This document shows positions 32,058 through 64,000 of a stretch of DNA of 64,000 bases, piece after piece. The notes beneath the pieces were generated by a model that was not told the origin of the DNA, searched no databases, and saw only the letters and a program-made list of their open reading frames with translations. This DNA is from Psammoneis japonica (taxonomy: Eukaryota): the NCBI GenBank assembly GCA_008632985.1, contig QPGO01000078.1, forward strand, positions 248,001-312,000, read 5' to 3'. Within the stretch, counting starts at the first letter, position 1; every line of letters begins with the position of its first letter. The position numbers and the translations under genes were made by a program.

Positions 32058-35000
32058 TGTCAGCCTGTCCATCCTGCAATGGACAGACTGCACACGGATG
32101 ATGGCAAGACCATCCAGACAGACGAGCAGATCTCTCTGAGATCTGCCTCTCACTTTCTCATCTGCTGGTGCTCGTGTTGTCACAGTCCCAGTGCTCAGGG
32201 ACTCTTTCATGCCTCTGTCATCATTGACCTTCAGTGTTCTGTCAGGTCATGGCCTTGCGCTGTGCCACAGAACTCTGCGCCGCGCTTTCTGTTTCGATTC
32301 ATTTGTTTTGTGAGCCGACCGAGCAAGCCTCATCGTCTGTTCCAACAACAATTTTTTCCTTGCTTTTCCGGCATTTTTCACAATCGTAGAAACATGCCAG
32401 ATTTCTGCATGTGCATGACCAAAAATGCCACCACCAAGTCCAACCATGGTGTCTCCGAGAGGTGCAAACCCTCCTCCGACATCCATCACAGAGATCTGTC
32501 ATGAGTTCCAACAACACAACACTCTGCCGCATGTCCACACATCTTTGAACATGCTTCACGTGGATGCCATCCATGCCTTAGACCCCTTTTTTAAAGACCC
32601 TGAGCACGCGACACCCAAGACAAACTTTTTGGACTTGCTGTGTGCACATCTCATCAACAAAGCAATTCCACCTTGCACGGCAGACCCTGGATGATCCTAG
32701 ATCAAGCTCTGTTTCGCATTGTGGACCCTGCCAGGACTCGTGCACTCCATTTGACTCCTGAGAGCCTCTCTCACATGATCAAACTCTGTCTTTGTCAACA
32801 TGAACATGCTCCACACATTCTCATGTCAATGCAGCACATGCACTTCAATCATGATGTGCGGTGGAATTATGGAGATTGGAAAGAGTTTTCTCTTTCCCCA
32901 CATGCATCTGAACAAGCACCTGCGGCTCCACCGTCATTGACCATGAATTCTTCATTGCATTGCATGGACGATTTTGTCACGGCTCCATGTGACGTTGTGT
33001 GTGGTGACACACAGCCACATTTGACAGCTGTTGGGCATCATGGAGGTGCTCCTGTGCATGTTACATCCAAGCATCAACCTGAACAAGAGTCTGTGCTTCT
33101 TTCAGCAACAAACAGATCTTGCTCCTTGATCGGTGCACACAATCTTGTCAAGAACTGGCACAGTTCCCCATCCGCAACTGCGCCACTCAATGTGACTGCC
33201 AGCATTCATTCTGGAGGCACCAACATGTGTTTTACATCCAAGTGCATGCCATCTGTGCACAATCAAGCTCTTGTGCCTCCTCCATCGCTGCTCGCACCTC
33301 CCTCCTTGGCCAGCATTCCCGATCTTGTCACGGTGTCGTGTGATTCATCACTGGGATCTACACTGCCCATTGTGGCTGCCAACATGTCTTCTGGAGACTC
33401 TGCAGCAGCTGTCATGTCTGTGGTTCAAGATGCAACTCCTGACACCAAGACCACTGGCAAGAGTGAAATTGGTTCTCATGTTTGGGTCCAAGAATCCAGT
33501 TTCCGTCACTCAGAGTTGCACCCCGTCTCCACAAAGGGCATTTTCCTTGGCCACTCATCTGATGCCAACAAGCATGTCCTGTGGCAAGATCCTGACACCT
33601 GTCAGACCAAGATTGCCATGCACGTGTGCTTCGACGAGGGCATGGATGACTCTCCTCATGCGAAGGATCAATGCAATCAAGATCCTTCACCTTCTGGTGG
33701 CCATGACAGATGTGATTCACCTTCTTTGCTCTCTTCCTCACCTCAGGTCTCTTGTTTGAGCAATCATGTGTTTGAAGTCTCCAAGATGGACTCAGCTGCT
33801 GAGTCTGCCAGCCACACAGATGCAGATGTGACTCGAGTTGAGGATGCATTTGTCATGGGTGCTCAGATTAATCCCACGAATGCAAATGCACTGGATGTCA
33901 AGCCTGCCATGTCCATTGTGGTTCCTGTGAGTCTGTCATCTGCAGTTGTTGTTGCTGGCTCCCTGGCATTGCATGCCAACTTGGCAGAACTTCCCCTCAA
34001 CATCAAGGTCCCACTTCAGTCCCCCAGCATCTGTTGTGATCATTCTGTTGATTCATGCAAAGGTGGCATCATTCTTAAGATGGAGGATTTGTCCTCTCTT
34101 TCCAAGTGTGCCAATGACACCAGCAACTCCTGTGCCATTGTCATTTGATGTGGATGACCACTGTCACCACATGGACAGTCACCCAGTTCCCTTGCCTTTG
34201 GATTTTTGGCTCGGCCGTCATCAACCTTGGATGTGCGATGCCACCAATGCTCACATTGTCTGAACAAGACTGACAGCAGCGGGGTGACTGTGAAAGAGGG
34301 CCACTGAGCTTTTTCACCCTCCGCTGTTCCACCTCTTCCATCTGACGGGATGGCTGTCATTCATTGACACCACCTGTGCGAATCTGACGGCTCCGGTCAT
34401 GTCCACCCTTGCAGATGACGACCCAAGTCTTCCTCTTCAGGAAATGTCAAAACACAGCACCAAGCAAGCGAGCGAGTTGGCAAAGCATGTGATCGATTGT
34501 GGAGCTGTGTCCATGATGGACATCTCTTTGCATGGCACTTCAGATTGAACGGTGCTCACTGTGCATCCATTTTCTTCCAACATGGACAAAGCCTGTGGCT
34601 CCACTGCCTCTTCTCACTCAAATCTCCCGGTTGGATTGAGGTGCATTCCATCATCTCTTGGCTCAACTGGTGTGTTGAATGTGGTGTTTTTTTGCCATCT
34701 CTGCCATCATGGCGACACTCGCGTCTTGTGGTTTTTGATTGCTTTTGAATGATTGTGCTGCGAGACATGTCCAAGACTCGCCAAAATGTCTTGACAAATG
34801 CTTTTGTTTGTTGCAGAGCGACGTTCGCTGTTGTTGTCATCCAATGACCGCGTTGCTGGCCACAACCACCCCAACCCTTTTGACGATTTCAGTCCCGAAC
34901 CGCGATCAACCAATGGATCACTTCTGCCCTTTTTTTTAGGAACCCTCATCATTGATGATGTTTCCACCAATGGCATCTGCTGTGGTCATTCATGCACCTC

Positions 35001-36850
35001 TTTGCCATCCAACTGAGGCTCATGTCATGCTCTTCACTTGCTTCTGTTGGGACTTTCCCATGACTTTGGCACATTTGACGAAGTGTGCTGAAGATGCGCT
35101 TGGTGCAGCTGCTCAGATGGATCCCAGGAATGCCAAAGCATTGGACATCAAGTCTGCTGTGTCTGTTGTGGAACCTGTGGGTGAGCCACCTGCAGTTGTT
35201 GCTGCTGGATTTCTTGTCCCACCGAATCGATGGTGCTTCCCACTGAGGTCCACGCCTGCCTGCTCGTGACCCCAAAGTTTTTTGTTTCTGGCCATTCCAT
35301 TGTTCCATGCAACGATGGCCACATTTCTTCCAGTTGTGGCCTGTCCTTCATCATCAAGGTCACACCCAAGTTGCTTGCCACATGTGCGCTGCCGTCATCT
35401 GTCACCCATGGATGCCGCCAACACTTCGTTGGTTGTCAAGTTGACTCAAATTCGGATTTTTGGTTTGGCCGTCATCAATTTCGGACACACGATGCAGCCA
35501 TTCCTTCACTCATCTGAACAAGACCAATGAAGCGGGGCAGTTGTGAAAGAGGACCATGGAGTCTCACTGCCTTCCGCCAGCCCATCTCTTTCCTCTGTTG
35601 TCAGGATTGTCATTGCACCCAATTGTGCTTTTCATGGTGCTCCGGATGTGTCCACCATTGCTGATGATGACCCTCATTTGCATGATCAGGGGAGGGATCC
35701 CTGTGGCAAAGAGGCAACACACAAGGCTCATGAGCATCTGCAATCCGGCACAGACACCTTTTTTGGTGGCCAAGATTTGGACACACTGCTGTGCCTGCGC
35801 ATCCGTTCCTCCAACATTGAGGAATTTCACGCTGTTTTCTCTTTGTTCAATGAGCTTTGCAAGGGTGGAGCAACATGTGGCACAGGTGCAGCTCTGTCTC
35901 GCGGGTTGCTCACGATTTATTTTTGCCGCATCCTGCACCATGGCGACGCCATCAAGACCGTTGTGATCTCGAATGACATTTTTCATGGTGCTCCCGACCT
36001 GTCCACCATCGCTGATGATGATCCTGCATTTCCGGATCAGGGGAGGGATCACTGTGGTGCAGAGGAAGCATGCAAGGCTTTTCAGCATTTGAGATTCGGT
36101 CCAGACACATCATTTGGCAGCCAAGAATTGGCAGCACTGATGTGCTCACCTGCCATGAGTCTTCGTCCTTCCGACGTTGAGGACTTTTACGCAGTTTTCT
36201 CTTTGCCCAATGAGTTTTTCAAGGGTGGAGCAAGATGTGGCAGTGGTGCTGTTTTGTCTGGTGGGTTGCTTCCGCTTTGTTTTTGCCGCATCCTGCACCA
36301 TGGTGATTTCCCATTCTGCCCCATTTCATTGGATGAGATTCAGCGACATCACGACTCACCAGAATGTCCATTTGGCTTCAATTGCTTGTTGATTGACAGA
36401 TTTTTTCAATGGTTCAAGTCTCGATTGACACGCAAGTTTTGTTGGAAACTGCCGATGATTTTTTTGTCGAAGACTTTGATGGATCAACACACACGCGCTG
36501 CAGCCATTGCTGATTTGTGGTGGTTCCTTTGCGATCACGTGTTGAGCAACCCTGGACACCACTGCTTTGTTTTGTCATCCTTTGGTTTTCCTCTACATTG
36601 TCCCTGTTCTTTGGTTTGATCTGCACTGTCTTCTATCTCGAGACATTGCAGATCAGGGGAGGGTGTCAGCCTGTCCATCCTGCAACAGACAGACTGCACA
36701 CGGATGATGGCAAGACCATCCAGACAGACGAGCAGATCTCTCTGAGATCTGCCTCTCACTTTCTCATCCACTGGTGCTCGTGTTGTCACAGTCCCAGTGC
36801 TTGGGGAGTCTTTCGTGTCTCTGTCATCATTGACCTTTGGCACTCTGCCA
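32058..36850 (+). mobile_element. Non-autonomous Copia-type (CoDi-like) LTR retrotransposon
   Basis: 187-bp LTRs 32058-32244 and 36664-36850 (TG...CA); 5-bp TSD ACATG; PBS-like ggtcatggcc 32245-32254; PPT aggggaggg before the 3' LTR; KGIFLGH...HVCFDEGMDD post-integrase motif; no RT recognised. Confidence 0.85.
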
Positions 36851-36855
36851 ACATG

Positions 36856-46453: not shown

Positions 46454-47739
46454 ACAAGGCGTGGCTCTCTTCGATACATATTTACATAGCAACGAGTCGT
46501 CATTGGACGTGAGGGATGGCTCTATATTCATTGCATATGATTCATATTGCGAGACGCAAAGAAACGAGAATAAGAGAGATACGTGCTCTATAGCCGTTCA
46601 CAAAGAACTCGCAATACAGGCGAAAGAAGAAATATACACAATTAGACAAATCTTATGTTTGATGCGATCGTTAGTCTCTTATCATTTATGAGTGGTGGGA
46701 GGATGCGTTATTGTCATTGTTTTCTCTAGGTGGACAGCGTTTGACCGCAACGTGTGCCGCCAGTAAAAAGAGGGCCGTGACACCGTGAATTGCTCATCAC
46801 ATTGCGAAGTGTGCGACATTCTCCATACGCGAAGCAAAAAGATGCAAAATTGACCCCGCGAATTGCTCGTCACATTGCGAAGTGGGGCCAATTCCTAGAG
46901 GACAAGTCCATCAAACCGCCGTGCTCTCGACAAGGATGCGTGAAAAGCTTGACCGCCACCGAAGCTGGCTTTCTCTAGATTGGCAGACCCTGTGCGCCAT
47001 CAAAGGCTTGCATCCGAGGAACCGTCATCATCAACTGGCAAGATGGCAGTGCGCATTTTCTGTGAAAAGCTGAATGCGCTCGCAGCTGGCACCAACCCAA
47101 AGCTGTCTTCCTTGCTTCTATTTGTTTCATTGTCGCTGCACAAAAGCAGCGCATTTTTCGCTCCCGTCTGCAGTGCTGCACTTCCCGCGCTAGAGTTCTC
47201 GGCGGGCTTTCGAAAAAGACGCTCTGGGCCATGCTTTTCTCTCGTGGCACACATCTTGGGGCTGGGTGGCATGTCTTCTTTTTGAACAACCGCTTTGAAG
47301 TCTTTCTCCTCTTCTTGCGGCTGGGCTTTTGTACGACGTACGACGTTTCTTTGGTGCACCTCTTGTGCAGACTTCTTTTGCAGCATCTTGGTGTCACGAA
47401 TCCTTGCTGTGAAAACGTTTCTATCTCTTCAAATTGATTGAATCCTCTTGTCTTCTCTGGTGTTGTGAAATGGCACATGGAGGAGTTGCGACACAAGACA
47501 GCTCTTCAATGGCTCTCCTGTTGATGGCGCGGCATGGTGCATTGGATCGGACGGGGTCTTGGCACAATCAAGATCTGTTCCAAACAAAACCTTTTGCACA
47601 TGAGCAGTCTGGAGTGGCTCTTTGTGGTCTGGCAGTGCGCATGGCCACGGGCATTCAACGATTGGAGAATTCAACAATCGAGTGAATTCAAATCGAAAAC
47701 CTGTGCACATCACTGCGGCTTGCCGTTTTCTGTGTTGGA

Positions 47740-47925
47740 GAGAAAAAATGTGAGATGGAATTTCCGGGAAAGATTCTCACACAGAATCTACAAAAGATTG
47801 CACCACAACATCTTTCTGCGGGTTTGCGCTCTGAGAAAAAATGTGAGATGGAATTTCCGGGAGACATTCTCACACAGAATCTACGAAAGATTGCACCACA
47901 ACATCTTTCTGCGGGTTCGCGCCCT
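47740..47925. repeat. 93-bp tandem duplication
   Basis: gagaaaaaatgtgagatggaatttccggg...ctgcgggtt x2 (tgtgagatgg at 47749 and 47842). Confidence 0.85.
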
Positions 47926-50005
47926 GCTCTGCTCTGTGATTTCTGATTGTGCGGAGCACAATGATTTTCTTCGTTTCACATGAAACTGCAGCAACCCTCA
48001 TTCAAACTGACTTGCCAGCATGTGAAACATGCTGGCTCAATTCAAAAAAAGGTGACTGAGGCTGCAATGCACCGCAGCAATGACAACGGCATGCCCATGA
48101 TGCAGCTGAAAGCAAGGATGATGAGGACAAGGTGAGCGAATCTGCGCTGAAGTGCCACAGGAGCCCATCAGCACAGCTTTCTTGATTGCAGAGGCATGCT
48201 GGTTTTCGCGGGTTTTTCAAACCATTCGGTCAGACAAAAAAAGAAGAAGAAAGACCAGTGGAGGGTGATGTGGCAGAGCCAAAGCTCACACACATGCACA
48301 GACCCTGGAGTGCTGTGGGCCCTGCAACTGGCTGACCACCAAAAGGCAACAGGCAGGCATCGCGCATGTGCCCTGCATCACAACATGTTGCGTGCCCAAA
48401 TTGAGACCTTCGATCACTCTTTTGAGGGTGGTTGAATCCACGTTGTGGGTTGATCTGATCAACCAAGCTCTTTTGTAAAGTGACATGAGATGTGAGTGAG
48501 TGAACTTTGACAAAGAGACAGCGCCATTCTTGCTCTCGTTGGCATGTGCACATTGCACCTCGCTTTACATGTTGTGTTGTTCTGTTGCACTCAATTGACT
48601 CCTCGTTTGGCATTCTCTGTGATTCTCCCCAATTTTCTAGAAAGGAACTCAAATTGTTCAAGAGCCCTCTCTGGATCGCTCTCCACTCTTGCTGGAGTGG
48701 CTGTGGCAGCCAGCTGGAGACTGCACTCCCAACTTGGCAGGTCTGCAAGGCTGCCACTGCCAGCAGAGAGCAGACTGCACAGCAGAGTGAAACGAAAGGA
48801 AGGACAACGGTTGATGGACAGAGCCTCATTCTGGTTTTTTTTGCTTTTTTTCTCCAGCTGGCTGCTGGAGCTAGAGAGCAGAGAGTGCTGCGAATTGCCA
48901 AACAATTGCGTGATTTGCGTGCCCGAAGCTCGAATGTCGCTGCCTGAAGCAACATTCACCATTCGCGCTGCAAATCATGTAGAACAATGTAGAAAACACA
49001 CTGGAACTCCCCTGTCAAAGCCAAATCTTTTTCTTGCAGTCGCCGTCACATCCACCATGAGTGGATCTGCAACGTGCTTGCCGCAGAAGCACTGAGGACA
49101 CTGACATTGCTGCCAGCGGTGATGCAATGCCAGCAGATGTTGAGAGAAACATTGCCATGGGAATGCCAGAGCCAGTGCGCCATCAAATCATCGAGCAACT
49201 GCAGAAGCCAAACTGCTGCGGCAACACCAAAAACATGAAGCAGACTCTCAAGGATGCCTTTTGCAGCACAAAGATCAAAAGGCTTTTCTTGACAGAACAT
49301 GTCAGAAGAAGATGAGGTGCTGGCATCGCTGTCTGTGACAAAGATTTTTGGCAAGTTCTGACAGGAACAACTTTGTGCAATTTGACCCGCTGCAAAATTG
49401 AATCATGTTGCTCACATCATTTCTTTTCATTTGGAAATTGAACAATGAGCAGCTGTGCTGACTCACAGGATGAAGGCACCACCATCATCAAAATGGGGCT
49501 CTGGAAGAATTGTGGTTGGCTGGCATTGAAGATCTTGATGAGACGGAGGAGAAGAGCACGATGCAACAATTTTTGGATTGGTGCTCTCCAAGGGCACTGG
49601 CTCGTTTGCACCTCTCATTGTGGTTCCTTCATGACATGATGCGCGTCAAGTGGGACACTGTGATGCTGAAACCCACTCCATGTGCTCTCTCATCTGCCCC
49701 ATGTGTGTGCTGGGTGCTGAAAAAGAAGATGTGTCACGACTTTGTCGCTGTGAAAATTGTGAGCCAGTTTAGAGCAGAGAAAATGGGATCGTGCGAATGG
49801 GGAATCTTGCCAAATCCCTGTTCGTTCGCATTTGGATCGCATCAAATCGATTGTGCACTCGCATCATGGATCGTGCGAATCAAGCCATCACGCGCCATGC
49901 ACAAGTGATGTCATCGTGTGGAATCACGCTGCCATCGTGGGCCAGACGACGGGCTGGTGTGCTTCACACGGATGCTCTCTTAGCATCCTTCTGGAATTGC
50001 CCAAG

Positions 50006-53000
50006 TGCAGCATGCGACTGTTGTGTGCACAATTGTGATCACACATTGTTTGTGTGTCAATCGCAACACAGTCGTGGATGCGCACAAAGGACAGAACGAT
50101 CACACAGAGTTGATCGGATGTCGAGAATTGCAAACACGATCGATTGACGATGTTGACATCTTGCGTGTCAATGGCAATCGCATCCGGACAATCTGTTGTC
50201 ATGAACACATTCTCCGAAAGGCCTTTTGTCTGTAGAAGCAGTGCAGAAACTTTGGGCCATTGAGAACTCGTTCGGAGAAACCAAAAATCACAGAGTGAAA
50301 TTCAATCTCACAATTTTTCACTTTTTGAACTTCGTTCTACTTTCGTTTGCACTCGTTCTTCGAGCATGGTGCATTGTGTGTGCACACCACAGAAGGTAAA
50401 AAGCAAGGAAAATGAAAATTTCAACTAATGTGCCTTTGCAAATTCTTCTGCAAACAGGAACGAATTGCATCCAGCGTTGTAAAATCGCCAACTTGATTGC
50501 AATCTTGTTTGCAATTCGATTGCGGATCGCGATCGAAACGATTGCAATCTGCTGGTTGTTTGTCTGGCGCTGGTCACAAAGATCGCAATCGTGTTCGCGA
50601 TCGATCGCGATCGATTCGTGTCTAAAATTTAGTCGTGAATCGGGATTTTCATCGCACACGGGACTAAAAATTGACCGAAACGTGGCACACATTCACGAAA
50701 AATGCGTTCTTGCGCAGAGGGCGCCCCTGCGTGGGGCGCGCAAATTCCGCGCGGTGGCCAATCGCGATCGCGATTGCAATCGATTGTCACACGTGGCAAG
50801 CGCACGCGCATTGCGATCTTTCGATTGCTGCGAAGCCGCACGCAATCGATGGTTGCAATCCGTGATTGTTGGGAGAAAGTCAACGATTTTATAACGCTGA
50901 TCGCATCAGTTCTGCTGGAATCGATTTCCGAGCGGAAGAAGCTCAAGCCGAGCAGTGCCTCAAGATGGAACGCTGTTTTTCATCTGCCAAACAAGAGGAT
51001 TCGCTCCAATGTGGTCCATTCCAAGCACCCAAGGATCAAGGGCTCTCAAGCACACCGCATTGTCAAAAAATCCCACACCAAGTCATGGTTGCAGAGAATG
51101 CAAGTTCCGAGTCGATCAGATCCGAGAAATGCGTCTGCCATGCAAGGAGAGACTGTTGGAGAGTTTTTTGAGACCGAGTTGATGATCCTCGAGTCCAAGG
51201 AGCAAGAGGGAATCGTTGGAAAGCACCTCAAGCGTCTCACAACTCATGTCCTCCGAGGAAATGCACTTCAGAATCAGGGAAATTATTTTCGAGACGACCT
51301 GAAGAAACCAGAGCCGCTCAACAGCAAGAAAGCCTCTGACAGACCCAAGAGGTCAACGATGAGAGTCTGTGTGACCCTCAGATGGATTCTAAGTCGAATC
51401 TAGCGGGAAACCGAGCGCTGATTTATCAGCTGTCACTCGCACCGCAAGGATGGCAGCATCAGCCTGCTGTCCAAAATGTTGAACTGCTGGATCACACCCT
51501 TGACAAGCTGATTGAGGTTTGAGTCGTCCAGAGGTCGGCAAGGACGTCTGTGACAAAAAAACATGTCAATTCGGGCTCTGACAGTGCAGTTGATTCCACA
51601 ATCAAAAAGGCCCCAATTTTGGTTCCAAAAATGGTCTCCCACATGGTGCCGCCACAATCCAAAGTGAACAAAAGGTCCAATCTTTGAAAGAAGAATGCCT
51701 GCATCACGGATTAAAGCCATTCTGAAAATGAACCAGTGAAAGAACGCCGTGGACACATTGAGCAATGATCCGAAACGGTGCCGTTCTAATGGCAATCGCA
51801 CGTGGAGTCGCGACAACGAAAATGCCGCTCGCAAAAAAAGAGATGAACGTCATGATTGATCAGGCGGTTCAAAAAACACTCAAAGCGAGTTCCTCGAACA
51901 AAGAAAAAGAGCACAAGGGCAAAGAATCAGATTCTGACACCCTCAGTGAAGAAAAACACCAATTTGATCGGATGATCCAGACTGAATCCGAAGAATGGTT
52001 TGGGTCCATTCACGAATTGTTTGCTCTGCTGGATGTTAGGAAGCCTGGAAAAAAGGCAGAAATAATTCACACTAGTCCAGGAGTCATCATTTATATGAAC
52101 ACTTCCTTGGGAAAGGAGAGAAAAAAGCACCCATGTGTTCTCTCGATAAAGAACATCGTCAGCCCATGATTTTGCGCAAAATCGTGCGAAAGTTGAGAAC
52201 CAAAATATCCGCCACCAAAAAACTTGGGAAACCAAGGGTGAGCTCTTTACGACTGACAGTAGAAACCGAATTCAGTTCTCACTATGTAAATTTAAGACGC
52301 ACTGATGTTCAAACAGCATGTGTCGATAACACGAAATCTTCTTCAAGGTTGAGTAATATGATCATGGGACGCGACTTAATGTCCAGTCTTGTAATCATAT
52401 TAGACTACGGAAATGAAGAAGTCAAATGGGAAGAAGCAATTACCCTATGAAGAATGTTCATACACTCTTCGATGCCGATGTTTTCAAGCTGAAAACCGAT
52501 CACATTGAAAAATATGACGCCGTGAATAGAGTTAATAACGGAACCAATGGTCCTCGACTCACATTATCACGCCATCGATCCTAATCAAGTGACAACTACG
52601 GCGATGCATCTAACCCAAATGAACACAACCAACTCAATCTTCTTCTTAAGAGGTTGAAATCTTTTTGAAAAGTTCCTCAGACGAATGTATGGGAAGAACC
52701 AGTGGATCTCATCGTGGAAAATCTGACGCGATTCCACGACGCGTGAGAACCTTCTCCTATCATAGTCTTTGGAGGCGTCCAATCAAAAGGAATTTGACCT
52801 ATTATGAAAGATTGAAGTCTAAAAAAATGAAATTACTCTGAATCAGTCGCTCTGAGACTCATTGTCTAAAGAAAACAGGTCGAGTTTGACCTTATCCGAC
52901 ACTCAGAAGCTTGGTAAAAGGTTCATACACGTGGTGTATCCTTTATCTAATATTCAGGAAATACCATTAAAGTAAGAACGTTTCATATATGTAATCTAAT

Positions 53001-55118
53001 TGATTCAAACATGGAATGCCACCATGTCAAATAAAAAAAGGCACACGTCGTGCTCACACGAAAATCATGCCGTGGGGAAAAATGAGTACTATAGACTTCC
53101 AACGAGAGGCTATAGAGCCCCAGATATTTTTATACAACACATGAGCGAACTCATGGCAGGTTTGAAGTTGTCAGAACGACTATAAATGATCGTTTATGCC
53201 TGACAAAAAGTGACTTCAAAATATCACCTGTACAAGTGACAGCTTAATACGGCATTTAAACGACTAGAACAGTCGCTTAGAAGGTTAACAACAAAAGTCC
53301 TTCACTATTTAACTTGAAATAAACTATCAAGACTTCCATACGTAACGATATGCATTCGATTACAAAGAAAATGGAGGCGATTCAAGCAATCGCAACATGA
53401 GAAAAACGTAAAGAACACTACGACATCTCGTCGTTATACGTTACTACTATCGAGACATGTAGTCTCAACGATCTCCTGTACAATACTAGCCAGATTCACC
53501 TCAACAAAGGTCAAACGGCAAAAGTACAAGTACGGAACGAAAAGTCTCCGAAAATATGGAGCGTATCAAATCAAAAACTATATTGTTATCATACACGTAT
53601 TTCAATATTATACGTTACAACGGAAAAAAGAACTTATGTCCATAGTGAAAACACTTATAAACTTCCGAAATATACTGTTTGGCCAACAGATTTATATATA
53701 TACGGATCATAAGACACAACGGACAAAGTCATACGTTGGCGACTTACAATAGAAAACTTCAGTCCCGCATTAAAATACAACGAGGGCAAGGCGAACATCG
53801 TCGCGATAGACGCGATCAGCCGACTTACTATAGAAAATTGAATCCTACGACAATGTCCTACCGTTAAAACGGGATAAAGATATTTCCCTCCAAATTGTCG
53901 GACGCGACATATCATACGAACACTTTTCGTGGAGGCGAGCGAGATCGAAAAATGCTCATATCATAAGGATAAAATCGCCTTTTTAAAAGGACGATTTAGG
54001 AAAAAACAGTGACAGATTGGCACACATTATACGCACCCACTTCACACTGGCAAAAGACAATCTCACAACACCCGTGCGGTTGTATTGTACAATGTACGAG
54101 GCAAGACATTAAAGTGCACATCATGTCGACACACGAGATGTGCCAAAGATCTAGAAAAAGAAAAGAAAAATGGACATTTGTCCACCAGTGCACGAAAGCA
54201 GTGCCTTCGGAATGGCAAAATGAGGCCGGCATGTCAAAAAGAAACGTCCAAGTGACGATTAAAATCCAACTGATAGATGGTTGAAGTGCAAAAAAAATCC
54301 ACAATGGACTTCACAACCATCACAGGATTGATTGTCAAGACGAAATGGTCGTGTCCTTGACTGTCGTCAATTGCCACTTAAGAAATGTGGCAGTGCAGCA
54401 GAGCAATGTTTCACATGAAGAAAGCCCGCCAAACTGCACGAAATCCACAAACAAGCAAGTGAACGCCAATTAAGTGCGCACATCAAGCACTGGGCAAAAT
54501 GCTGTGTACAATCGACACCATGAAAGAACAGCAGGACAATTGGTCCGTGTGTCCAAATGAACATGAGACAAACCATGACACTCTCGAAAGACATTTGGAA
54601 AATGAAACGGCCCTGTGCATGCTGGCCTGCAACAACAACAGTCATTGCCAATGGCACAATGCAGTGAACGTGGAGACATCATTGACACTGTCAATGTCCA
54701 TCGAACAATCCACTTGGCAAATGACTCTGATGTGCAATTGGGGAGGCGAGTGCAGCACGCGACTGTTGTGCACATAATTGTGATTGCACGTCATTTGTGT
54801 GTCAATCGCACCACAGTCGTGGATGCGCACAAAGGACAGAACGATCACACAGAGTTGATCGGATGTCGAGAATTGCAAACACGATCGATTGACGATGTTG
54901 ACATCTTGCGTGTCAATGGCAATCGCATCCGGACAATCTGTTGTCACGAATGTGTTCTCCGAAAGGCCTTTTGTCTGTAGAAGCAGTGCAGAAACTTTGG
55001 GCCATTGAGAACTCGTTCGGAGAAACCAAAAATCACAGAGCAAAATTCAATCTCACAATTTTTCACTTTTTGAACTTCGTTCTACTTTCGTTTGCACTCG
55101 TTCTTCGAGCACAGTGCA
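50006..55118 (+). mobile_element. Non-autonomous Gypsy-type LTR element inserted in the 3' LTR of the outer Gypsy
   Basis: 368-bp LTRs 50006-50373 and 54751-55118; 4-bp TSD CAAG; PPT ggggaggcgag; decayed pol traces (MIMGRDLM, EYYRLP..APDIF, YYRDM, YTDHK). Confidence 0.88.
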
Positions 55119-55269
55119 CAAGACCCAGAGCCACGCCCTCCTGTGGTCGTGCTTCCCAGGTGCATGTTAACAACACTGCGTTGCCATGTGCAAGAGGCTT
55201 GTGCACGGTCTCGCCGTGTTGTCCAGCAGCAAGGCATGCTGCACACTCCCCCATGATCAGGGCCGTCAA

Positions 55270-58200
55270 GTGACAGGATGTCTTGCTGGTGACAGGGCAC
55301 AATCTGCTGCAGATTGTGCGCATCCATCAGCGCTCCATTCTGGACATGCAACGTGCCGTTGTCACACACACGGACAACTCTGGCGGGTCCTGCACAGCTG
55401 TCAGAACCGTGTTTAGAGGATTGTTCCTGTTTGACAAGTGCCAATTGCCCTGCGGCACATTGATGCTCCTTGCGTTTCTGATTTTCACACTTGTTGTTTG
55501 GGTGGGTGAGCTTCTGCTTTCTGGTTTCTGTGCACTTCCACTCAGCACGATGGGCAACAGACAAAAACCGCATCGCGTCCGAAGACCAATTGCACGGGAC
55601 TTGCACGCGTGGTCGCATGTGCCGCAGCTCTGATGGCGAAGGCTGCTGCGGAGAGGATGCCACTCCATGGGTCATCTTCGTCCAGTTCCATGTCCTGCAC
55701 TGAAAAGGAATGCACCATGTCACCAAGTGTCTGGTGCACACGTTCCACTGTGGCATTCGCCTGTGGATTCCGTTTGCTTGTGGGTTTCTTCAAAATCCCA
55801 CAGTCATTTTTAATCATCTGGCTAAATTCTGCCATAAATTCTGTCCCACGGTCATGAACCACCTGGGTTGGCCACGGATGTCTGCATGGCCACGTTTGTT
55901 CCACGACATTTGCTGCGACGTCTGCGCGTTTCATAGACACTTCTTTAATCTCGAACCACCCGGTTGCTGGGTCAATCATTGTGACTGCCCACAATTGCAA
56001 AGTGTCCTTTCCGCGTCTTTGAATTTACATGGCCCTGTCACATCTGTGCGTGGAGTCTCCCATGGAATTGTCTCTGCGACCTTTTCTGGCAGCTTCCCAT
56101 GATGCTGCGTTCGGCGTTTTGTCTTCTGGCATCGATTGCACTTGGCGCACGTAGAGTGCACCGTAGACCTCATGCCAGGCCAATGGAAGTGCTGGGCAAC
56201 AGACATTTCCGCACGTGTCTCACCTGGATGACACAGTGTCTCGTGGTGCCATTCAGTTGGCGGAACCTGCAATGACTGTGGTGCTGCGATTTTGTCCTTA
56301 TGACAGATTAACTGTCGTGATGACCCTCCCCCACGATGCGCGCGAATGGAGCAGTCGGACGAGTCCTTGGCTCGTGAGAGCAGGCGCTTGTCCTTTTGTT
56401 GTGCTTTTTGAATGCGCTTGAAGCCAACAGGCAGAGATGTCTCATCTTGCGCGTCTGCATTAAAAGCTTCATGCAAAGGACGACTCATCCGGATTGGCCT
56501 CGGAAGGCAAGCTGGGTGCCAGTCAAAGGCGACTAAGAGCGTCAGCGACTGGGTTGTGGGTGCCCTTGACATGGCGCAATTCGGGGCCGTGTTCCTCGCA
56601 TGTCAACCGCCAGCGCACAACGCACTCGGCATTGAATGCTTTGTGCGCAAGATTTTTATGATCAGCATGTGCAATTGTGCGATGACCAAGGACAATCGTT
56701 CGAAATTCTTTCAACGTCTCCACAATGGCGAGCAATTCTCTCTCCGTTGTTGCACAATTTAATTGTGCACTGTTGAGCTTTCTGCTGCAAAAGGCGACAG
56801 GTTTGTCATTTTGGGATGCAACTGCTCCCAATTGACATTTAGAGGCATCGGCACGCATCTCAAAAGGTTTGTTAAAATCAGGATGTGATGACAAAACATC
56901 ATCCGATGTCACCCGTTTGACGGTTTCGAACGTCTCGTCTTCAACGGACGTCCACTCCCACTTGACAGTCTTGCTTGCAAGTCATGTCAGCGGAGCCAAG
57001 ACTTCAGAATGTCCAATCCACATGTCACGGCAGCAGTTCACCATGCCAACAAATGAGCGCAGGTTGCGTTTGTTGGTTGGGGTCGCGATTCGCTTGATGG
57101 CATCGACTTCATTGGGTGTTGGTCGCATTCCGTCTCTGTTGACCAGATGACCCAAGCACTCTAATTGGGTTTGACAGAAGTGAGATTTAGTTGTGTTGAC
57201 TTTTGGTCCTGCTTTCTGGACCCTCAACAAAACTTCTTCAAGTTTGTTGAGGTGATCTTCACAGGTGCCTTTCGTCACGACGAGAAGGTCATCTGAGTGT
57301 GTTCGAGCGAACGACAAATCTTCAAATGAGCCTGACATGCGTTCTTGGAAAATGTCTGGCGAGTTGCACAATCCCATGGGCAATGCCTGCATCTCATGCT
57401 TGCCCCACGGGAAGATGAGCGTGCAGAGCTTCTCACTGTCGGCATCCAATCGGATGTGACAATGGCCCATGTTTAAATCCAGCGATGTGGCCCACGTGAA
57501 GCCTTCGAGCTCAAGCAGCATGTCTTGGACATGAGGAATCGGACAAGGCAATCGCTTGATCCGTTTGTTCAGCTCTCTCAAATCATTGACAAAGCGCGCC
57601 GTTAAATCTTTCTTCAGCACGACAAATGATGGAGCTGCCCGTTGGGATCGGTCAACGCATTTGAGAACACCAATGCGTGCTGGGCGTTCTATTTCTTTAC
57701 GTAGCGTAGCTTCGTACGCACGAGGCACTTTATACGGACGAGCGTGGTGTGGTTCTACACCCTCCTTGAGTTGGATGTGGTAGGGTTCTCCCTTCCATTC
57801 TCCTAATGTCCCATCAAATAAGGACTCATGGCGTTTCAACAGTGCCAAAAGGTCGTTTTATGTGACCTATAGAAAGTCCTATTGCCCCTCGCGTTATGTC
57901 CTCGAGGCAGGCCGGCGCGCACTTAGCGTCTAAAATACGCGAAATCCGGTCGGTTTCCGAAGATAAGGCTTCTGGATCTTGAAGATAGAAGGAGGTTTCT
58001 ACCGTAGCATCTACGTGCCTCATTGGTACTTCTCCATTGACTAATGGCCACTCTATCATCTGTTTAGAGAAGACAATATCAATGCCGTGTGTCTCCAGAA
58101 TGTCACGTCCAATAATCATACAGTGTCGTACTTGCCCAACTTTCCGTTGTGTACGTGGACGGCATGTTTAAGTTCTGCAGTTTCGGATAATTCTGGCAAC

Positions 58201-58400
58201 CGAAATTTAACGGTACAGTCGTTAGACGTACTGAACGAGCCTGCTACCGTAGTCCAGTTTGTCTCAGCCGTTGAATGGCTTCGCAGACGTTTACAGTGTC
58301 GACTGTCGAGTTGAGCACTGCTGGCGCCACCATCTGGTAGTGCCTTAATGGTTTGAGTCTTGCCCTTGCCATGTTTAGCATTCACAGCTATAAACAAGAT
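55270..58400 (-). pseudogene. Gypsy pol (protease, RT, RNase H, integrase)
   Basis: ALPDGGAS/IIGRDIL protease; SLDLNMGH, LPMGLCNSPDIFQ and RTHSDDLL RT; ADASKCQLG and TERELLAIVE RNase H; TMIDPATGWFE, HDRGTEF and NPQANATVERVH integrase. Confidence 0.9.
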
Positions 58401-58529
58401 TGGAGCAAGATGAGTCTTTTTAACTCGTTTGCGGGATTGGCCTACAACACGTGTACGATGGCAATTCAGTTGTTCATTTGCACATTCATCTGATGTGTCA
58501 AAACTGCCTGCATCGTGTCGGCCCCCTTC

Positions 58530-59510
58530 TCAGGCGTCCGAATCTTCGGAGTCACTTAAGTTGAGGTCGCAGAAGTGATTGGGCTCCTCCTCACGTGCCT
58601 TGCGCTTTTTCTGAGCGTTGGCAAAGAACTCCTCGACCTTCGATCCGATGAGAGCATTGATGTCTTCCTCATTCCGAGGTTTTGTGTTGGGCTTGCTGCC
58701 TCCGTTGTTGGAATGTCCAGTCTTGACACGTTTCACGTGGTGCTTGAGCTGATGGCAATCCTCCGCATGATGTCCACAGTTGGTCCCGTGTGGCATGCAC
58801 GACTTCTGGGTGTTCCGTTGGGTCGTGATCAACGACTCAGGATTGTCCGTTCTACGTCCCCACTTGCGTGGAACCTCAGCATGTTGGTCCTGGTTACCTT
58901 CGGCAAGCTCGACCTGCTCGATGCGCTCGCAGAACTGTGTGAATTCGGCGACAGCATGCGCCAACGGGTCAAAATTCTGTAGCGTCATGAACTTCTGCCA
59001 TGCGTTCGGCACACCGTGCTCGAACACATCGCATGGTTCGTCATTGGGCAATGGTGCCGGTGCTTCTCCATCCTCCATCACGGGTGGAAACTGAGAGACA
59101 CAGCTGTTAATTTCAACAGCCCTCGCGACGCAGTCACGAGTGGAAACCTCTGCGGGCTTGCGCATGAAGCGCCTCAGACAACGCTTCTGCAATGGCGCCA
59201 CCCTGTGTGGGAAGATGCTTTCCTTTAGCTTCGCGATGCATGCTGCATGCGTGGCGTTGGTTTGGGATGCCTGCTTGTCATCGCCCTGCAGCAGGTCACG
59301 CATGAGGGCAAATTTTGCTGGCCCAGTCGTGATGTTTTGTCCTTCGTGCACGCGATCCACGTTGTGCAGAAAGATTGGGAGTGTCTCGCATGTAGCCGCA
59401 GAAAGGTGCGGAGTGCCCATCTCGTGCGTTGGACCATCCGGATCAGCGGGGTTGTCATGCAGCTTTAACGTCTGGCACTCGCCTTGCTGCAGCTCTTTTT
59501 CTCCGGCCAT
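58530..59510 (-). pseudogene. Gypsy gag
   Basis: QKRCLRRFMRKP, FEHGVPNAWQ and CMPHGTNCGHHAEDC zinc knuckle; lies between the 5' LTR and pol; contains no Tyr. Confidence 0.75.
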
Positions 59511-61949
59511 GCGAACGGAATCGGCGGCTTGGTCCGCTCCTTCATGGTCGTTTTAAGATTTGTCGGTCCTGCCAACATTTTGTAGTTTCGTTTCTGTGGA
59601 TTTCGTTGCCTCGCACAATGTGCGGGAGCAATGTTGCTGTGCCCTGTGCATGTGCCAGGCGCTGAAAAAGAAGATGCGTTGCGACTTTGTCGTTGTGAAA
59701 ATCATGAGCTGGTTTGGAGCAGAGAAAATGGGATCATGCGAATGGGGAATCTTGCCAAATCCCCATTCGTTCGCATTTGGATCGCATCAAATCGATCGTG
59801 CACTCGCATTGTGGATCGTGCGAATCAAGCCATCACGCGCCATGCACGAGTGATGTCATCGTGTGGAATCATGATGCCATCGTGGGCCAGACGACGGGCC
59901 AGTGTGCTTCACACGGATGCTCTCTTGGCATCCTTCTGGAATTGCCCAAGACCTGGAGCCACGCCCTCCTGTGGTCGTGCTTCCCAGGTGCGTGTCAACA
60001 ATGCTGCGTTGCCACGTGCAAGAGGCTCATGCACGGTCTCGCCGTGTTGTCCAGCAGCGAGGCATGCTGCACATCATCCATGACTGACAATGCCTCCTGC
60101 CACATCAAGGACTGTGGTTTGTTCTTCAAGATTCTTCACATTCCTGATGAGGAGGCTGCTCACAAAATTCAAGCTCAATTCATGCCATCAGGCAGCTGGC
60201 ATGAGCATGCCACAAGAGTTTGGGCAAGGTGGTGAGTGCACACAGTGACAAAGCTTTGTTGCTTGCTTTTGCAACCGCTCTTTTAGTTCTTTTAACTTGG
60301 CACTAGAATCTTTTTTCCAACTGCAGTGCTGCCCAACATTCGCCGGCTTGCCAGTCTCAAGGCATTGTGGCTGGCTTGATTTAGATTGAAATGTGATCGA
60401 TCCTTTTCAATTCTGCAATGTCATCAACAGCTCCAGTGAGTTCCAGTTCATTCTTGTGGCACTGGTGCATCTTGCGCGTCCAGAGGAAGACATCACAGTG
60501 TGGCATTGGATTCTCTGCTTTGTGTGTCGCTGCGCAATGAGCGGGCGATCTCAAAATCACACTGCAGACTGGACCGTGAACATGAAGAACAAAGAGGGCA
60601 GGGTGGGCCTCTGCACTGGGTGCCACTGAAATGGGTCACGATGAAGTTGTCACTTGTCTTTTGGATCAGGGTGCTCGTGTGGACATCAAGAGTGCATTTG
60701 GCAGCACATCACAACTGGAGCTGGTGGAAAACTGAATGATCACTGACTCATCTGACAGATCACATTGCTTTGTCTGAGATGCCAGGATTGGCTTGAACTT
60801 GCTTCCTGATTCTCCATCCAAGATCTTCACACTGAGTGCATGTCAGGATCCCCCTCATCAGTGCTTTTTGCTGTTTCGGACCAAGCATTTTGATGGGTTG
60901 CGAAATGGGTGGATGTGGAGCGGACTTGCAGCCCAGTTTGTGGCCTCCCACATCGGTTTCATGCAAGCTCCAAATGGCCCCGTCCAATGCAAGCAGCCCC
61001 ACTTGAACATTTAATGCATTTGACCATGCGCGAGTCAACTCTGCCTTGTGCAACCCCAAAGTTGGCTCATCCCGCGTGTCGTGATCTGGTGAAAACAGGA
61101 CACGTGCCATTGCATGCACCTTGAATCACATGCAATGAAGCGCATGTCACCAATTCCCTCACAGTCATGATGAGGAACATGATGACACTCTGCAGACACA
61201 CCTCGACCCAGAACAAGTCTGGGCACTTTTGGCCCCATGCAGAGCAAACACATCCAAAGCAGCCACGCGCACTTGATTGTTACAAGACGCACGCCATGAC
61301 GATTCACAACATCCTTTCCAAGCTGATCCAATTCATCCACGTGTTCCAAATGCAAGTGGGTGGTGCAGAGAGAATGAACATCTGAAGATGCGGCAGCTGC
61401 TTGAGATTTGGCTTGGATTCCAGCGCACTGCGCTTCATCCCATTGAGCCTGAGAGTGGCATCTCCTCTGGCACCACCACGAGAAGGACAAGGCGCTAACC
61501 TCGAGGTGATTTGGGGAGTGGTGCGGTGCTTTGGTCTTCTCGCATGCAGCATGATGAAAGCAAGCGCTCGCTGTGAACGTCATGGTCTCGCATCGGAGGG
61601 AAAAAATGAAGGTGTTCGGAGTGTGTTGTCAATCGGCATTTTGGTGCAAATTCTACGTAGTTCTACATGATTTGCTGCGCGAACGGTGATTGTTGCTTCG
61701 GGCCACTCCCAGCTTGGGAGGCTTCGGGCAACGAGATTTGACCTTCGCGCACGTGTGTCGTGCAATTGTTTTGCAATTCGCAGAGCACACTGCAATGGAG
61801 GGAGAGAGAGAAACGGACAAAGGAAGAACGAGACGAAGAAAACATGAAAAAGGAAAAAACTGTGGCAATTGGTGTGACGATGGCATCCCATGATGGATGC
61901 AGCAGCTCTTTGCTGCACCTCCCGAAGTGGCCTCCCGACCCTCCGCCAT

Positions 61950-64000
61950 GGCCATCTTTCTTTTTGCGGATCCTTTTCCCTGCTGTTCTTGCCTTTGCCA
62001 TCGTCCCCTTTCTCCATTCCCTTCCGGTCACTCTCTTCGCTCCTTTCGCCTGCACATTTCTACGCCCCTTCCACTGGTCCCCAGTTTCCACGATTGCCAA
62101 CTGCCCTTCCAACTGCTCACTCCATTGCCCTTTCATTCTTCCTCACTCCCTTTCTTCATCCCAACAACTGCCCTCTGCCATTTCCCTTTCTGCTCTTCCT
62201 TGTGCCCTCTCTCCTTCTCTGCCTCGTTCGATCCTTTTCCCTGTGGCCCCTCTTTGCCCCCTGACCCCTTCCCCACTTCCTCCTCTGGCAACCCCTTCAA
62301 TTGCCCCCCTTCCTCCCATGACTCCCTTCACGCTTTTAGTTGTGACTCCTCTCCTGTCATTCCACATGCCTTTCTACGCCCCTCCAAACACGATTGCTTC
62401 CGCACTCCTCTGCAGCTTCCCCCACCCTTCAGCCCTCTCTGCTGCCCCTTTCTCTTCCATGACTCCCTTTGCGCTTCTGCTTGTGCCTTCCCCCCCATGT
62501 TTCTGTGCGCCTTCTACGATCATTCGTGTGCGATTGCCCACGTCATGCCTTCACCTTCCCTCCTCCTACCTTTCTACGCGTTCTGTGACCTTGTCGCTGT
62601 TTTTGGCGATCCGCACACAACAACGACTCTCTGCAACTTTCTCTTTTCGTTTGACCATGTCTGCTCTCGCCTCCACTCCTCCTGCTGACGTCAAGCTTTT
62701 AGCTCAGGTCCTTCATCCCACTGACCTGCCTGATGTGCCTGCTGTTGCTCTTACGTCTGATGTCATTCGCGACATCGTTCTCAAGACGCCAGAGCATCGT
62801 GGCCGGCGTGTCTCTCCGCTCCTCCTCACTCTTGGCTCTGTGACGCTTGCTGAAACCAAGAAACGCTCCTGCCCCCACCAGAATCAGTGGGCGTCTTACT
62901 TTCACGTTGCTCTTCACCCGGTGACGCCCGATGGCACCACCTTTACCTTCGAATCCTTCCGCAGCCAAGCGCTCTCTTTTCTCCTTCAGAAATGGCATCT
63001 GCACCCTGCGTCGCACTTCACCCCCTTCCGCTCCGCTGGCTCCCCTTCCAATTTTCTCCACCCTGACTTCTCTCCGGTTTCGGCTGTGGACAATCCTTGG
63101 GCTGACACTGCACCTTTATGATCCCGGCCTGCAACTCTTTCGATGAAAAGGCTCATGGCATCCTTGCTGCCCCCTCCCCAACCCTCTGCGGTTCTTCTCG
63201 ACGTGCTTCTGAGTTTCTCCCATCCCGCCTTTGTTCCTTCCTTGTTGGCAAGATTTCCAGCACTGCGACCAATCCCATTCTTCAATCCTTCTGAGACTGT
63301 CCCACCTTTCTTAATCTCATTGGAATTCGTCCTTCGCAACACCCTGCTAACTCGGCCCAAGCGCGACGCCGTTCTCTTCCGGTTTTTTACATTTCTGCTG
63401 CCTCCGATGCCGTCTGGAACACCCCACTTCATGTCACCAATCCATCCAATGCGCCACCTGCCTCCTTCTCCATCCTGGGGACATCCACTGCCATCATTCC
63501 CTTCCCAGCCCCGGCCAACTTTGCTTCTACCTACAACGCCCTCTCCGAGCTCATTTCGCATCAGAGCAACATGAAAGTGGTTGTCTCTGACCGTCTTCTC
63601 CTTCCTCTCACCCAACCTGGCATCAGTCGTCTCCTTGCTGCAACCAATCTTCGCTCCCTTGTCCCCATCTTCTCTGCTCATGACTCCCTCCCAATCAAGT
63701 GCAAGCTGCTCTTTTTCCCGTCTCCATGCACAATTGCTCTTGTGGATGCCAACCTGCACAACTGTCCCGGCTTTCCCTTGGATCTCCTTGCCTCTGCGGC
63801 GGAATCTACCCATGACGACAGCATGGCTTCCCCATCCTACGCCTCTGCTGCTCTTCAGCCGCCTGCCCCCTCTCGAGATTCTTTCTTGTGTCGTGCCCTT
63901 GAGCTGCTTGCTCAAGACTGGCATCTCCCCAAACCCCAAGATCCGCTCCCTGCTGCTGCATCTCCCTCCTCTCATCCTCCCCAAGCCCGCTCCCTCACCA
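61950..64000 (+). other. Pyrimidine-rich, TpA-poor segment with an unclassified ORF start (62657), probably another element running out of the window
   Basis: Strong C/T skew on the + strand; MSALASTPPADVK... ORF with no recognisable motif. Confidence 0.3.

Follow-up and report, generated by a model that had tools for sequence, protein, structure and literature searches.

The stretch of DNA analysed here, a 64-kb window of the Psammoneis japonica genome (hereafter the window), holds a nest of two LTR retrotransposons. The outer element has its coding strand on the minus strand. Its intact LTR (59640..60073, minus strand, 434 bp) is the 5' LTR by element orientation, and its other LTR is split by the inner element into a truncated part of 311 bp (49695..50005, minus strand) and a part of 123 bp (55123..55245, minus strand). 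A purine run that is PPT-like on the minus strand adjoins the second part from position 55246. Both LTRs are flanked by the target-site duplication (TSD) TCATC/TCATC (49690..49694 and 60074..60078). The interior (55246..59639, minus strand) contains a degraded pol with shifted frames in which RVT_1, RT_RNaseH_2, Integrase_H2C2 and rve domains are found, and the TG...CA ends of the LTRs, the TSD and the pol order RT-RNase H-integrase place the element in the Ty3/Gypsy group. The window copy has His at the conserved Tyr column 57299, which we take to be the Y of YxDD, and GHCHI stands in the interior where a GYYHI-like motif is expected.

The inner element was inserted within the split LTR of the outer element. 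Its 5' LTR (50006..50373, plus strand) and 3' LTR (54751..55118, plus strand) are 368 bp each, the latter is preceded by a purine-rich PPT-like run, and the TSD CAAG/CAAG (50002..50005 and 55119..55122) flanks both. The interior (50374..54750, plus strand) has weak pol similarity (protease/RT/RNase H) at 52214-53865, and a search for an integrase in this interior detected none. As both LTR pairs have target-site duplications, each pair represents a single insertion. A third LTR-like pair (32058..32245 and its partner at 36664..36851, plus strand) surrounds a copia-like ORF, with GGGGAGGG preceding the partner. An Rfam search of the 64-kb window returned no match, and a search for a dinoflagellate spliced-leader motif also gave none.

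The nest lies in DNA that has lost most of its TA dinucleotides. The observed/expected ratio (o/e) of TA is 0.27 over the whole window and falls to 0.01-0.13 within sharp-edged tracts that total 40 kb, where the o/e of TG and CA is raised to ~1.5-2.0, GC is 0.49-0.54 and the o/e of CG is as low as 0.23-0.52 in the most depleted tracts. Three of these tracts cover the nest and its surroundings: 46776..52035 (TA o/e 0.10, CG o/e 0.80), which includes the left-hand portion of the nest with its flanking DNA, 54278..57686 (TA o/e 0.13, CG o/e 0.82), and 58456..64000 (TA o/e 0.13, CG o/e 0.70), which reaches the end of the window. Two blocks inside the elements have been spared. The inner element holds a near-native block with sharp edges (52037..54275, 148 TA, o/e 0.75), and the outer element holds a native block whose edges are known to ~100 bp (57690..58455, 50 TA in 766 bp, o/e 0.96). 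The contexts of the surviving TA steps show that RTAY is lost first and that YTAR persists. An estimate of strand-context preference from the excess of xTGy 4-mers in depleted versus normal tracts was rejected, as it gave fractions above 1 or below 0, gene tracts being ill suited as a reference for transposable elements.

The depletion follows the type of sequence. Six ORFs with host-type Pfam domains (Fasciclin twice, PALP, IBR, C2H2/PHD and DUF7640) all lie in normal tracts, in which the TA o/e is ~0.5 and the CG o/e is ~1.0; the retroelement ORFs of the window lie in depleted tracts, and the TA loss extends into flanking DNA that belongs to no element. The Tyr content is 1.2-2.8% in the six host-type ORFs versus 0-0.2% in eight ORFs of the depleted tracts. 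Apart from the host-type genes, one of 49 long ORFs has a Pfam match. Within this window the process is thus directed at mobile or foreign DNA, and the host genes between the tracts are spared. An alternative genetic code in which TAA and TAG are sense codons was also considered and rejected: the host-type ORFs stop at TGA, TAG and TAA and their domains are complete.

The differences between LTR copies were examined by comparing the copies column by column without gaps. The outer pair differs at 38 of 434 columns, and 24 of these belong to 12 doublets at which one copy reads TG and the other CA. One copy keeps TA at three sites (49771, 49982 and 55168), one copy has CG where the other has TG or CA at nine sites, and the remaining differences are one C/T outside CpG and one transversion; 23 CG and no TA are the same in both copies. 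The inner pair differs at 19 of 368 columns, which comprise seven doublets, one CA/TA site (54775), three CG-related sites and one transversion, with 20 CG and two TA unchanged in both copies. The third pair differs at 16 of 188 columns and includes five doublets. The counts given in the original prediction (12, 3, 9 and 2 others for the outer pair; 7, 1, 3 and 1 for the inner pair, with ~20 CpGs unchanged) were all reproduced, and the three TA-retaining sites it named are present, but the one that it placed at 49780 is at 49771.

Doublets of this kind are far too frequent for chance. In 20,000 simulations that placed an equal number of transitions at random positions, doublets averaged 0.69 in the outer pair (maximum 5) and 0.19 in the inner pair (maximum 4), and no simulation reached the observed 12 or 7. 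The raw LTR divergence of 8.8% (outer) and 5.2% (inner) is nearly all hypermutation, and divergence outside YR steps is 0.46% and 0.27%, respectively. TA conversion amounts to ~94% per LTR copy, and the excess of the TA process over the non-YR background is estimated at ~1,200-fold for the outer pair and ~2,500-fold for the inner pair, with backgrounds of just two and one differences. CpG sites changed at 0.14 (outer) and 0.065 (inner) per copy; expressed as per-copy hazards, ~0.15 for CpG against ~2.8 for TA, CpG decay is ~20 times slower. The two TA that are unchanged in both inner LTRs and the two TA-native blocks are not what a uniform per-site rate would leave.

A TG/CA doublet could descend from TA or from CG, and the polarity was read from the codons of the same outer element and from its composition rather than from the LTR doublet positions themselves. 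Residue tallies per position were obtained from BLASTP, with 120 intact relatives defining the conserved columns; an alignment made with mafft --addfragments --keeplength was set aside, since the insertions it drops break the codon mapping. Of the 22 conserved Tyr columns, 11 are His (CAY) in the window copy, nine are Cys (TGY), one is Trp, one is still Tyr and none is Arg, so that no changed Tyr codon (21 in all) is CGY, and Arg is retained at 28 of 34 conserved Arg columns. The depleted tract has 83 conserved columns at which the window copy differs; 46 of these are explained by TA>TG/CA and five by CG>TG/CA, where codon changes with several one-step explanations were assigned to TA first. 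On the sense strand the 46 are balanced between TA>TG (25) and TA>CA (21). One doublet can also be followed outside the LTRs: among the differences listed between the window copy and sibling contigs is a TG/CA doublet at 55410-55411, and Tyr is the top outgroup residue for that codon (41 of 95 when the four commonest residues listed are counted). The composition of the element agrees with the codons. If the doublets were TA, the outer LTR originally had ~27 TA and 32 CG, and a 434-bp segment with the density of this element's unmutated 766-bp block (50 TA, 46 CG) would have ~28 TA and ~26 CG; if they were CG, the LTR would have needed ~59 CG and 3 TA.

The rival in this case is that the doublets arose from ancestral CpG, with a methylated CG becoming TG in one copy and, through the other strand, CA in the other copy. 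Sites with CG against TG or CA do exist (nine in the outer pair and three in the inner), the outer LTR site 49852 is C in all ten sibling contigs that cover it, and the CG o/e of the most depleted tracts is low. At the observed per-copy CpG change, though, fewer than one CG-derived doublet is expected per pair, and the CpG origin would need a second class of ~27 CpGs that are 94% mutated in a context that is not visibly different. The starting LTR would have had the CG-rich composition given above, and the CAY and TGY codons came from conserved Tyr codons, not from Arg. CG ancestry is contradicted both at the coding sites and on composition, and we regard it as extremely improbable. Judging from the coding sites and the composition of the same element, the ancestral state appears to be TA rather than CG, which is indicated by conserved Tyr codons having become CAY or TGY and never Arg. 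The proposal that the two copies resolved an ancestral TA differently, one to TG and one to CA, is thus supported by the Tyr codons, the composition, the doublet at 55410-55411, and the mutation spectrum of Bigelowiella natans discussed below.

The LTR pairs also indicate when the changes were made. During retroviral replication, both LTRs of an insertion are copied from the same U3-R-U5. Editing before integration, by an ADAR/ADAT-type enzyme on RNA or by deamination of cDNA, would leave the two LTRs of one insertion identical, and differences between them would have to be brought in by gene conversion from edited copies. Donors for such conversion exist in what looks to be a very high-copy family (10,464 contigs, see below), and ADAR-type enzymes favour a 5' U. 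Both products are nevertheless present in both LTRs (one outer copy has six CA and six TG at the doublets), an RNA route predicts A>G on the sense strand alone versus the 25 TA>TG and 21 TA>CA observed, and conversion would not confine the differences to YR steps. Flanking non-element DNA is TA-depleted as well, and the His at 57299 together with ~20 further Tyr losses would hardly be compatible with transposition. We give this combination of editing and conversion next to no credence. Because the two products are balanced and both occur in both LTRs, the target is duplex DNA and not the transcript or minus-strand cDNA. The two LTR pairs with TSDs and the third pair, differing by doublets with both products in each copy, bear out the view that mutation occurred after insertion in chromosomal DNA, and editing during reverse transcription as the sole cause is excluded, as had been argued. 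Some of the TA loss at positions where the LTR copies agree could predate insertion.

Sibling copies of these sequences were found in public data. The contigs of one public run (X1) contain 45% of the sampled words of the window, and 10,464 of them were matched to it, 2,018 at no less than 99% alike. Going by this number of contigs on the stretch, the family appears to be very high-copy. Transitions dominate the differences between these copies and the window (A>G 296, G>A 300, C>T 259, T>C 276), with 7-32 in each transversion class, and site 49852 is the sole LTR site among the 40 differences listed of ~1,300. Two other runs (X2 and X3) contained next to none of the sampled words, and a degenerate LTR pattern that was scanned against a metagenome contig collection and a viral contig collection gave no matches in either.

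These contigs bear on whether the pattern is an artefact of sequencing or assembly. In that case a long-read basecaller would make strand-specific errors at heavily modified bases of silenced repeats, and a true TA (or CG) would come out of the consensus as TG or CA at random. An artefact of this kind would account for the restriction to repeats, the random choice between TG and CA and the sharp tracts, and X1 may be the sample behind the assembly. Independent column errors would sometimes yield CGY, which is absent from the 21 changed Tyr codons. The run contains nearly half of the sampled words and the closely alike contigs counted above, and its contigs reach 315 kb with single contigs at ~60-80 depth, which suggests accurate reads. 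The same spectrum arose de novo in Illumina-sequenced lines of B. natans, according to the preprint (bioRxiv 10.64898/2026.01.13.699255). An artefact is therefore very unlikely.

We consider it highly probable that a post-integration process that changes TA to TG or CA acts on chromosomal double-stranded DNA and is aimed at mobile or foreign DNA. The TA steps of an integrated retrotransposon would be changed to TG or CA in chromosomal duplex DNA by A>G on either strand, with the opposite strand reading T>C. The LTR copies would be struck independently until hardly any TA remained, and a TG/CA doublet would result where opposite strands were struck in the two copies. A slower decay of CpG to TpG or CpA would proceed alongside in the same tracts. 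The likeliest route may be an enzyme that deaminates adenine to hypoxanthine within T-A on either strand of the DNA; a candidate class would be a TadA/ADAT-like deaminase, as proposed for B. natans, and silent chromatin or small RNAs could provide the targeting. A thymine-side alternative would be mispairing of a modified T with G; sequence alone does not tell this apart from the adenine-side route, as TA is its own reverse complement.

The process is already known in kind. In a 2026 preprint, Mettrop et al. describe hypermutation of TpA to TpG or CpA in NCLDV and virophage DNA that is integrated in the genome of the marine alga B. natans, and report that this spectrum arose de novo in mutation-accumulation lines, only some of which showed activity, at a rate raised >1000-fold (bioRxiv 10.64898/2026.01.13.699255). 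The two systems share several features: TpA alone is struck, TpG or CpA is produced depending on the strand, foreign chromosomal DNA is the target, and TpA depletion and CpA/TpG gain occur in clustered windows. The rate excess may also be of a similar order (~1000-fold there; estimates of ~1,200-fold and ~2,500-fold here on two and one background differences). Reverse-transcriptase Pfams are also enriched among the TpA-depleted CDS of B. natans, a shared long-term signature. In the window, too, the change is confined to TpA, occurs after integration, and hits foreign DNA and spares host genes. In contrast to B. natans, the targets here are LTR retrotransposons and other repeat DNA, CpG decay goes with TA loss, and the process is near saturation, with the low TA o/e given above over 40 of 64 kb compared to a Rho of 0.45 for the NCLDV region there. 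The evidence also differs, being LTR pairs and protein-level polarity here and mutation-accumulation lines there, and the available parts of the preprint make no mention of an RTAY/YTAR preference or of unmutated blocks within elements. The six host-type ORFs of the window, which are long and uninterrupted, also seem unlike the intron-rich genes of B. natans. What is new here is the LTR-pair proof, the near-saturation, the RTAY flanking preference and the unmutated blocks in elements.

Other systems share part of this pattern. Repeat-induced point mutation (RIP) occurs in ascomycete fungi, with a TCG-directed variant in some basidiomycetes. As with the process in the window, RIP is a genome defence that introduces transitions in a dinucleotide context into duplicated or mobile chromosomal DNA, spares genes and invalidates dating. 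Unlike the process in the window, it is C>T, mainly CpA>TpA, so that TA is enriched and GC lowered. The repeats here show neither a TpA excess nor AT enrichment; TA is destroyed and GC stays at ~50%. APOBEC3, acting on retroviral cDNA, and ADAR, acting on repeat dsRNA, likewise restrict retroelements through a deaminase with a neighbour-base preference, a 5' U for ADAR, which the preprint also states (bioRxiv 10.64898/2026.01.13.699255). They act before integration, change a single strand (G>A, or A>G in the sense strand) and produce no difference between the LTRs, whereas here the two strands are struck about equally, the LTRs differ and each was struck independently after integration. Deamination of 5-methylcytosine at CpG also gives TG and CA from a palindromic YR step and is a minor component in these tracts, but the CpG route leaves the TA loss and the change of Tyr to His and Cys unexplained. 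In full-text literature searches the B. natans preprint was the only report found of TpA-directed DNA hypermutation; the searches otherwise returned fungal RIP, which runs in the opposite direction.

These results provide independent proof, from sequence alone, of TpA hypermutation after integration in chromosomal DNA and on both strands, and they rest on LTR pairs with TSDs and on Tyr-codon polarity, a different type of evidence from that of the single mutation-accumulation study. They also demonstrate that a TpA process can reach saturation on retrotransposons. LTR-divergence dating, which had been predicted to be invalid here, is indeed off by ~20-fold (8.8% vs 0.46%). Since the process removes Tyr codons as well as two of the three stops, dead elements present long open frames, which gene finders may take for genes. 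In such genomes, transposable elements are also harder to cluster into repeat families and to detect by Pfam. At a little under even chances, we would suggest that this editing defence is a wider protist counterpart of RIP rather than a chlorarachniophyte oddity, which would have erased all retrotransposon TA within ~0.2% of ordinary divergence, and that the ~100-bp edges, the loss of RTAY over YTAR and the sparing of whole blocks may point to an editor guided by chromatin or RNA and not to diffuse damage. Both the RTAY preference and the sharply bounded unmutated blocks offer handles for tracing the enzyme and its guide.

A search for repeats, together with alignment and inspection of the junctions, resolved two LTR retrotransposons in the window, one nested in the other. 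One LTR of the outer element is intact (434 bp, 59640-60073), the other is split by the inner insertion (49695-50005 and 55123-55245), and the element is bounded by an exact 5-bp target-site duplication, TCATC. The interior lies on the minus strand and has, in several shifted frames, the successive domains RVT_1, RT_RNaseH_2, Integrase_H2C2, and rve, which makes this a degraded Ty3/Gypsy element. The inner element is on the plus strand inside the split LTR, with 368-bp LTRs (50006-50373 and 54751-55118), a CAAG target-site duplication, and coding content reduced to a weak remnant of pol. The two LTRs of a single insertion are identical at the start owing to the way retroelements replicate, and the target-site duplications show that each pair is a single insertion. 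The outer flanks (49600-49683 and 60102-60151) are joined, with 36 other letters between them, in a contig from the public sequencing runs X1 and X2; this contig is a paralogous host-repeat copy without the outer insertion and has TA where the window's flank has TG.

The LTR copies were compared column by column without gaps. The outer pair differs at 38 of 434 columns: 12 doublets (TG in one copy and CA in the other), three sites where one copy kept TA (49771, 49982, and 55168), nine CG versus TG/CA sites, one non-CpG C/T difference, and one transversion; 23 CG and no TA are the same in both copies. The inner pair differs at 19 of 368 columns, with seven doublets, one site where TA was kept by one copy (54775), three CG versus TG/CA sites, and one transversion, and 20 CG and two TA are the same in both copies. 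These are exactly the numbers of the original prediction for each pair, including the roughly 20 unchanged inner CpGs, but one of its three outer TA-keeping sites, placed at 49780, is at 49771. When an equal number of transitions was placed at random (20,000 simulations), the mean was 0.69 doublets for the outer pair (maximum 5 versus 12 observed) and 0.19 for the inner pair (maximum 4 versus 7 observed). A copia-like ORF is flanked by a third LTR-like pair (32058-32245 and 36664-36851), with five doublets in 16 differing columns, and repeats within host genes have at most one.

A doublet requires one change in each copy, from either an ancestral TA or an ancestral CG. Scans of two sequence collections gave no match for sibling LTR copies, and polarity was read from the coding region of the outer element itself, using protein relatives as the reference. 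A database search found 951 relatives, and the best 120 (~56-64% identity, with ordinary Tyr content) defined 498 conserved columns (at least 70% agreement among at least 40 relatives), of which the window copy departs from the consensus at 108. At the 22 conserved Tyr columns the window copy has His (CAY) 11 times, Cys (TGY) nine times, Trp once, Tyr once, and Arg never, while Arg is retained at 28 of 34 conserved Arg columns. The Tyr column at 57299, which we take to be the Y of the YxDD motif, is His, and a GYYHI-like motif reads GHCHI. The 83 conserved-column differences in the depleted (TA-poor) part include 25 that fit TA>TG, 21 that fit TA>CA, and five that fit CG>TG/CA, a tally in which codon changes of ambiguous origin were labeled TA by priority. 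At 55410-55411 a doublet separates the window copy from all nine sibling contigs covering the site, and Tyr is the commonest outgroup residue of that codon (41 of 95 when the four commonest residues listed are counted).

Composition agrees with the Tyr codons. With 12 doublets, three single survivors, and no double survivors, an ancestral TA gives ~94% conversion per copy and ~27 original TA sites beside 32 CpG in the outer LTR. This fits the densities of an unmutated 766-bp block of the same element (50 TA and 46 CG, or ~28 and ~26 when scaled to 434 bp), whereas a CG ancestry would require ~59 CpG and three TpA. The proposal that the doublets derive from CpG is thus contradicted by both the Tyr codons and composition, and these support TA as the probable ancestral state, resolved to TG in one copy and CA in the other as originally predicted. 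Miscalling of modified bases during sequencing could produce much of the pattern as an artefact, but this is unlikely, given the absence of CGY at former Tyr codons and the long contigs of the public run X1: this run contains 45% of the sampled words of the window, and 2,018 of its contigs match the window at 99% or more, although X1 may be the assembly's own sample.

Both products occur in each LTR, with six CA and six TG at the outer doublets and three and four at the inner doublets, and the sense strand of pol is likewise balanced (25 TA>TG versus 21 TA>CA). If the transcript or the minus-strand cDNA had been edited, the changes would run in one direction and be common to both LTRs. The bulk of the change therefore occurred on duplex chromosomal DNA, after insertion and separately in each copy. 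The earlier claims of independent mutation after insertion and of the exclusion of reverse-transcription editing as the sole cause are borne out. Editing before integration followed by gene conversion explains neither this balance between strands nor why the differences are confined to TG/CA/TA/CG (YR) steps. The per-site TA hazard is ~1,200-fold (outer) and ~2,500-fold (inner) that of the non-YR background, rough values that rest on only two and one background differences. CpG decay (14% per copy outer, 6.5% inner) is a real second process, roughly 20-fold slower than the TA process. Raw LTR divergence is 8.8% outer and 5.2% inner versus 0.46% and 0.27% for non-YR differences alone, and dating by LTR divergence is invalid here, as had been proposed. 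From these sequence comparisons, conversion of TA to TG/CA after insertion is the supported interpretation.

Across the window TA is depleted (observed/expected ratio, o/e, 0.27) and TG and CA are in excess (1.49 and 1.44). A two-state model on YR steps called seven depleted tracts covering 40,208 of 63,956 bases (TA o/e 0.01-0.13, CG o/e 0.23-0.82), and the lowest CG o/e coincides with the lowest TA o/e. Host-type domains occur in six ORFs (two Fasciclin, PALP, IBR, C2H2/PHD, and DUF7640), all within normal tracts with TA o/e of ~0.5 and CG o/e of ~1.0; their Tyr content is 1.2-2.8%, and they terminate at TGA, TAG, or TAA. Tyr makes up 0-0.2% of eight depleted-tract ORFs; the ends of four of these were examined, and each stops at TGA. 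Tract edges are sharp; for example, the PALP frame starts at 14126, soon after the last depleted stretch, whose end is at 14102. With TAA and TAG erased and TGA the sole remaining stop, dead DNA reads as long ORFs, which could be called by gene finders.

Several other features of these tracts were observed. The stretches 11695-14102 and 28001-30000 are complex and non-repetitive, have almost no TA or CG (e.g., 0-2 each per 500 bp) and no Pfam matches, and are presumably the oldest targets, in which CpG decay is also complete. On the minus strand at 39744-42799, two open frames (709 and 588 codons) overlap within a depleted tract; neither matches Pfam, and their Tyr content is 0%. The DUF7640 ORF (44516-46450, plus strand; 645 aa, 11% Cys, seven DUF7640 repeats) is in a short normal tract with a depleted tract on each side. 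The copia-like element (32058-36851), with LTR-like ends of ~188 bp and a 514-aa ORF whose sole Pfam match is SH3_retrovirus, lies within the large tract where depletion is strongest (TA o/e 0.05, CG o/e 0.41). Depleted stretches at 30001-32000 and 62001-64000 have strong negative GC skew (-0.34 and -0.44), for which balanced TG/CA conversion is no explanation.

Blocks of native TA density persist in both elements, at 57690-58455 in the outer pol (50 TA in 766 bp) and at 52037-54275 in the inner pol (148 TA in 2,239 bp), with edges resolved to ~100 bp and summed contig depth resembling that of their neighbors. These blocks could result from protection from the editor or from later gene conversion. 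The 185 TA steps surviving in depleted tracts differ in context from the 936 in normal tracts (chi-square on half-sites, P ~1e-23): ATAT (0), ATAC/GTAT (1), and GTAC (4) are nearly lost, and TTAA (39), CTAA/TTAG (39), CTAC/GTAG (38), and CTAG (15) are enriched. In the inner LTRs, the two TA steps that both copies retain have the contexts GTAG and CTAC. The blocks and the surviving contexts do not fit a uniform process, and the contexts suggest, as a lead only since the baseline is genic DNA, that RTAY may be edited faster than YTAR. This flanking-base preference is unlike that of ADAR, which prefers UAG.

A full-text literature search gave one direct match, a 2026 preprint on Bigelowiella natans (10.64898/2026.01.13.699255), and otherwise fungal RIP, in which the change runs the opposite way (CpA>TpA with TA enrichment), whereas the window loses TA. 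In its mutation-accumulation lines, two integrated viral regions together had 231 changes, of which 230 were A>G or T>C, every one of them at TpA, at ~1000x the background rate; TpA-depleted CDS were enriched for reverse-transcriptase domains, and an ADAT2-like DNA adenine deaminase is proposed as the enzyme (10.64898/2026.01.13.699255). The process in the window is of the same kind. The ORFs of the window are long and uninterrupted, and in this they seem unlike B. natans, a species rich in introns. The phenomenon, though real and striking, had thus been described before. Beyond the B. natans case, the Psammoneis japonica window provides proof based on LTR pairs, shows that retrotransposons can be converted to near-saturation with CpG decay alongside, and adds the flanking preference and the spared blocks.
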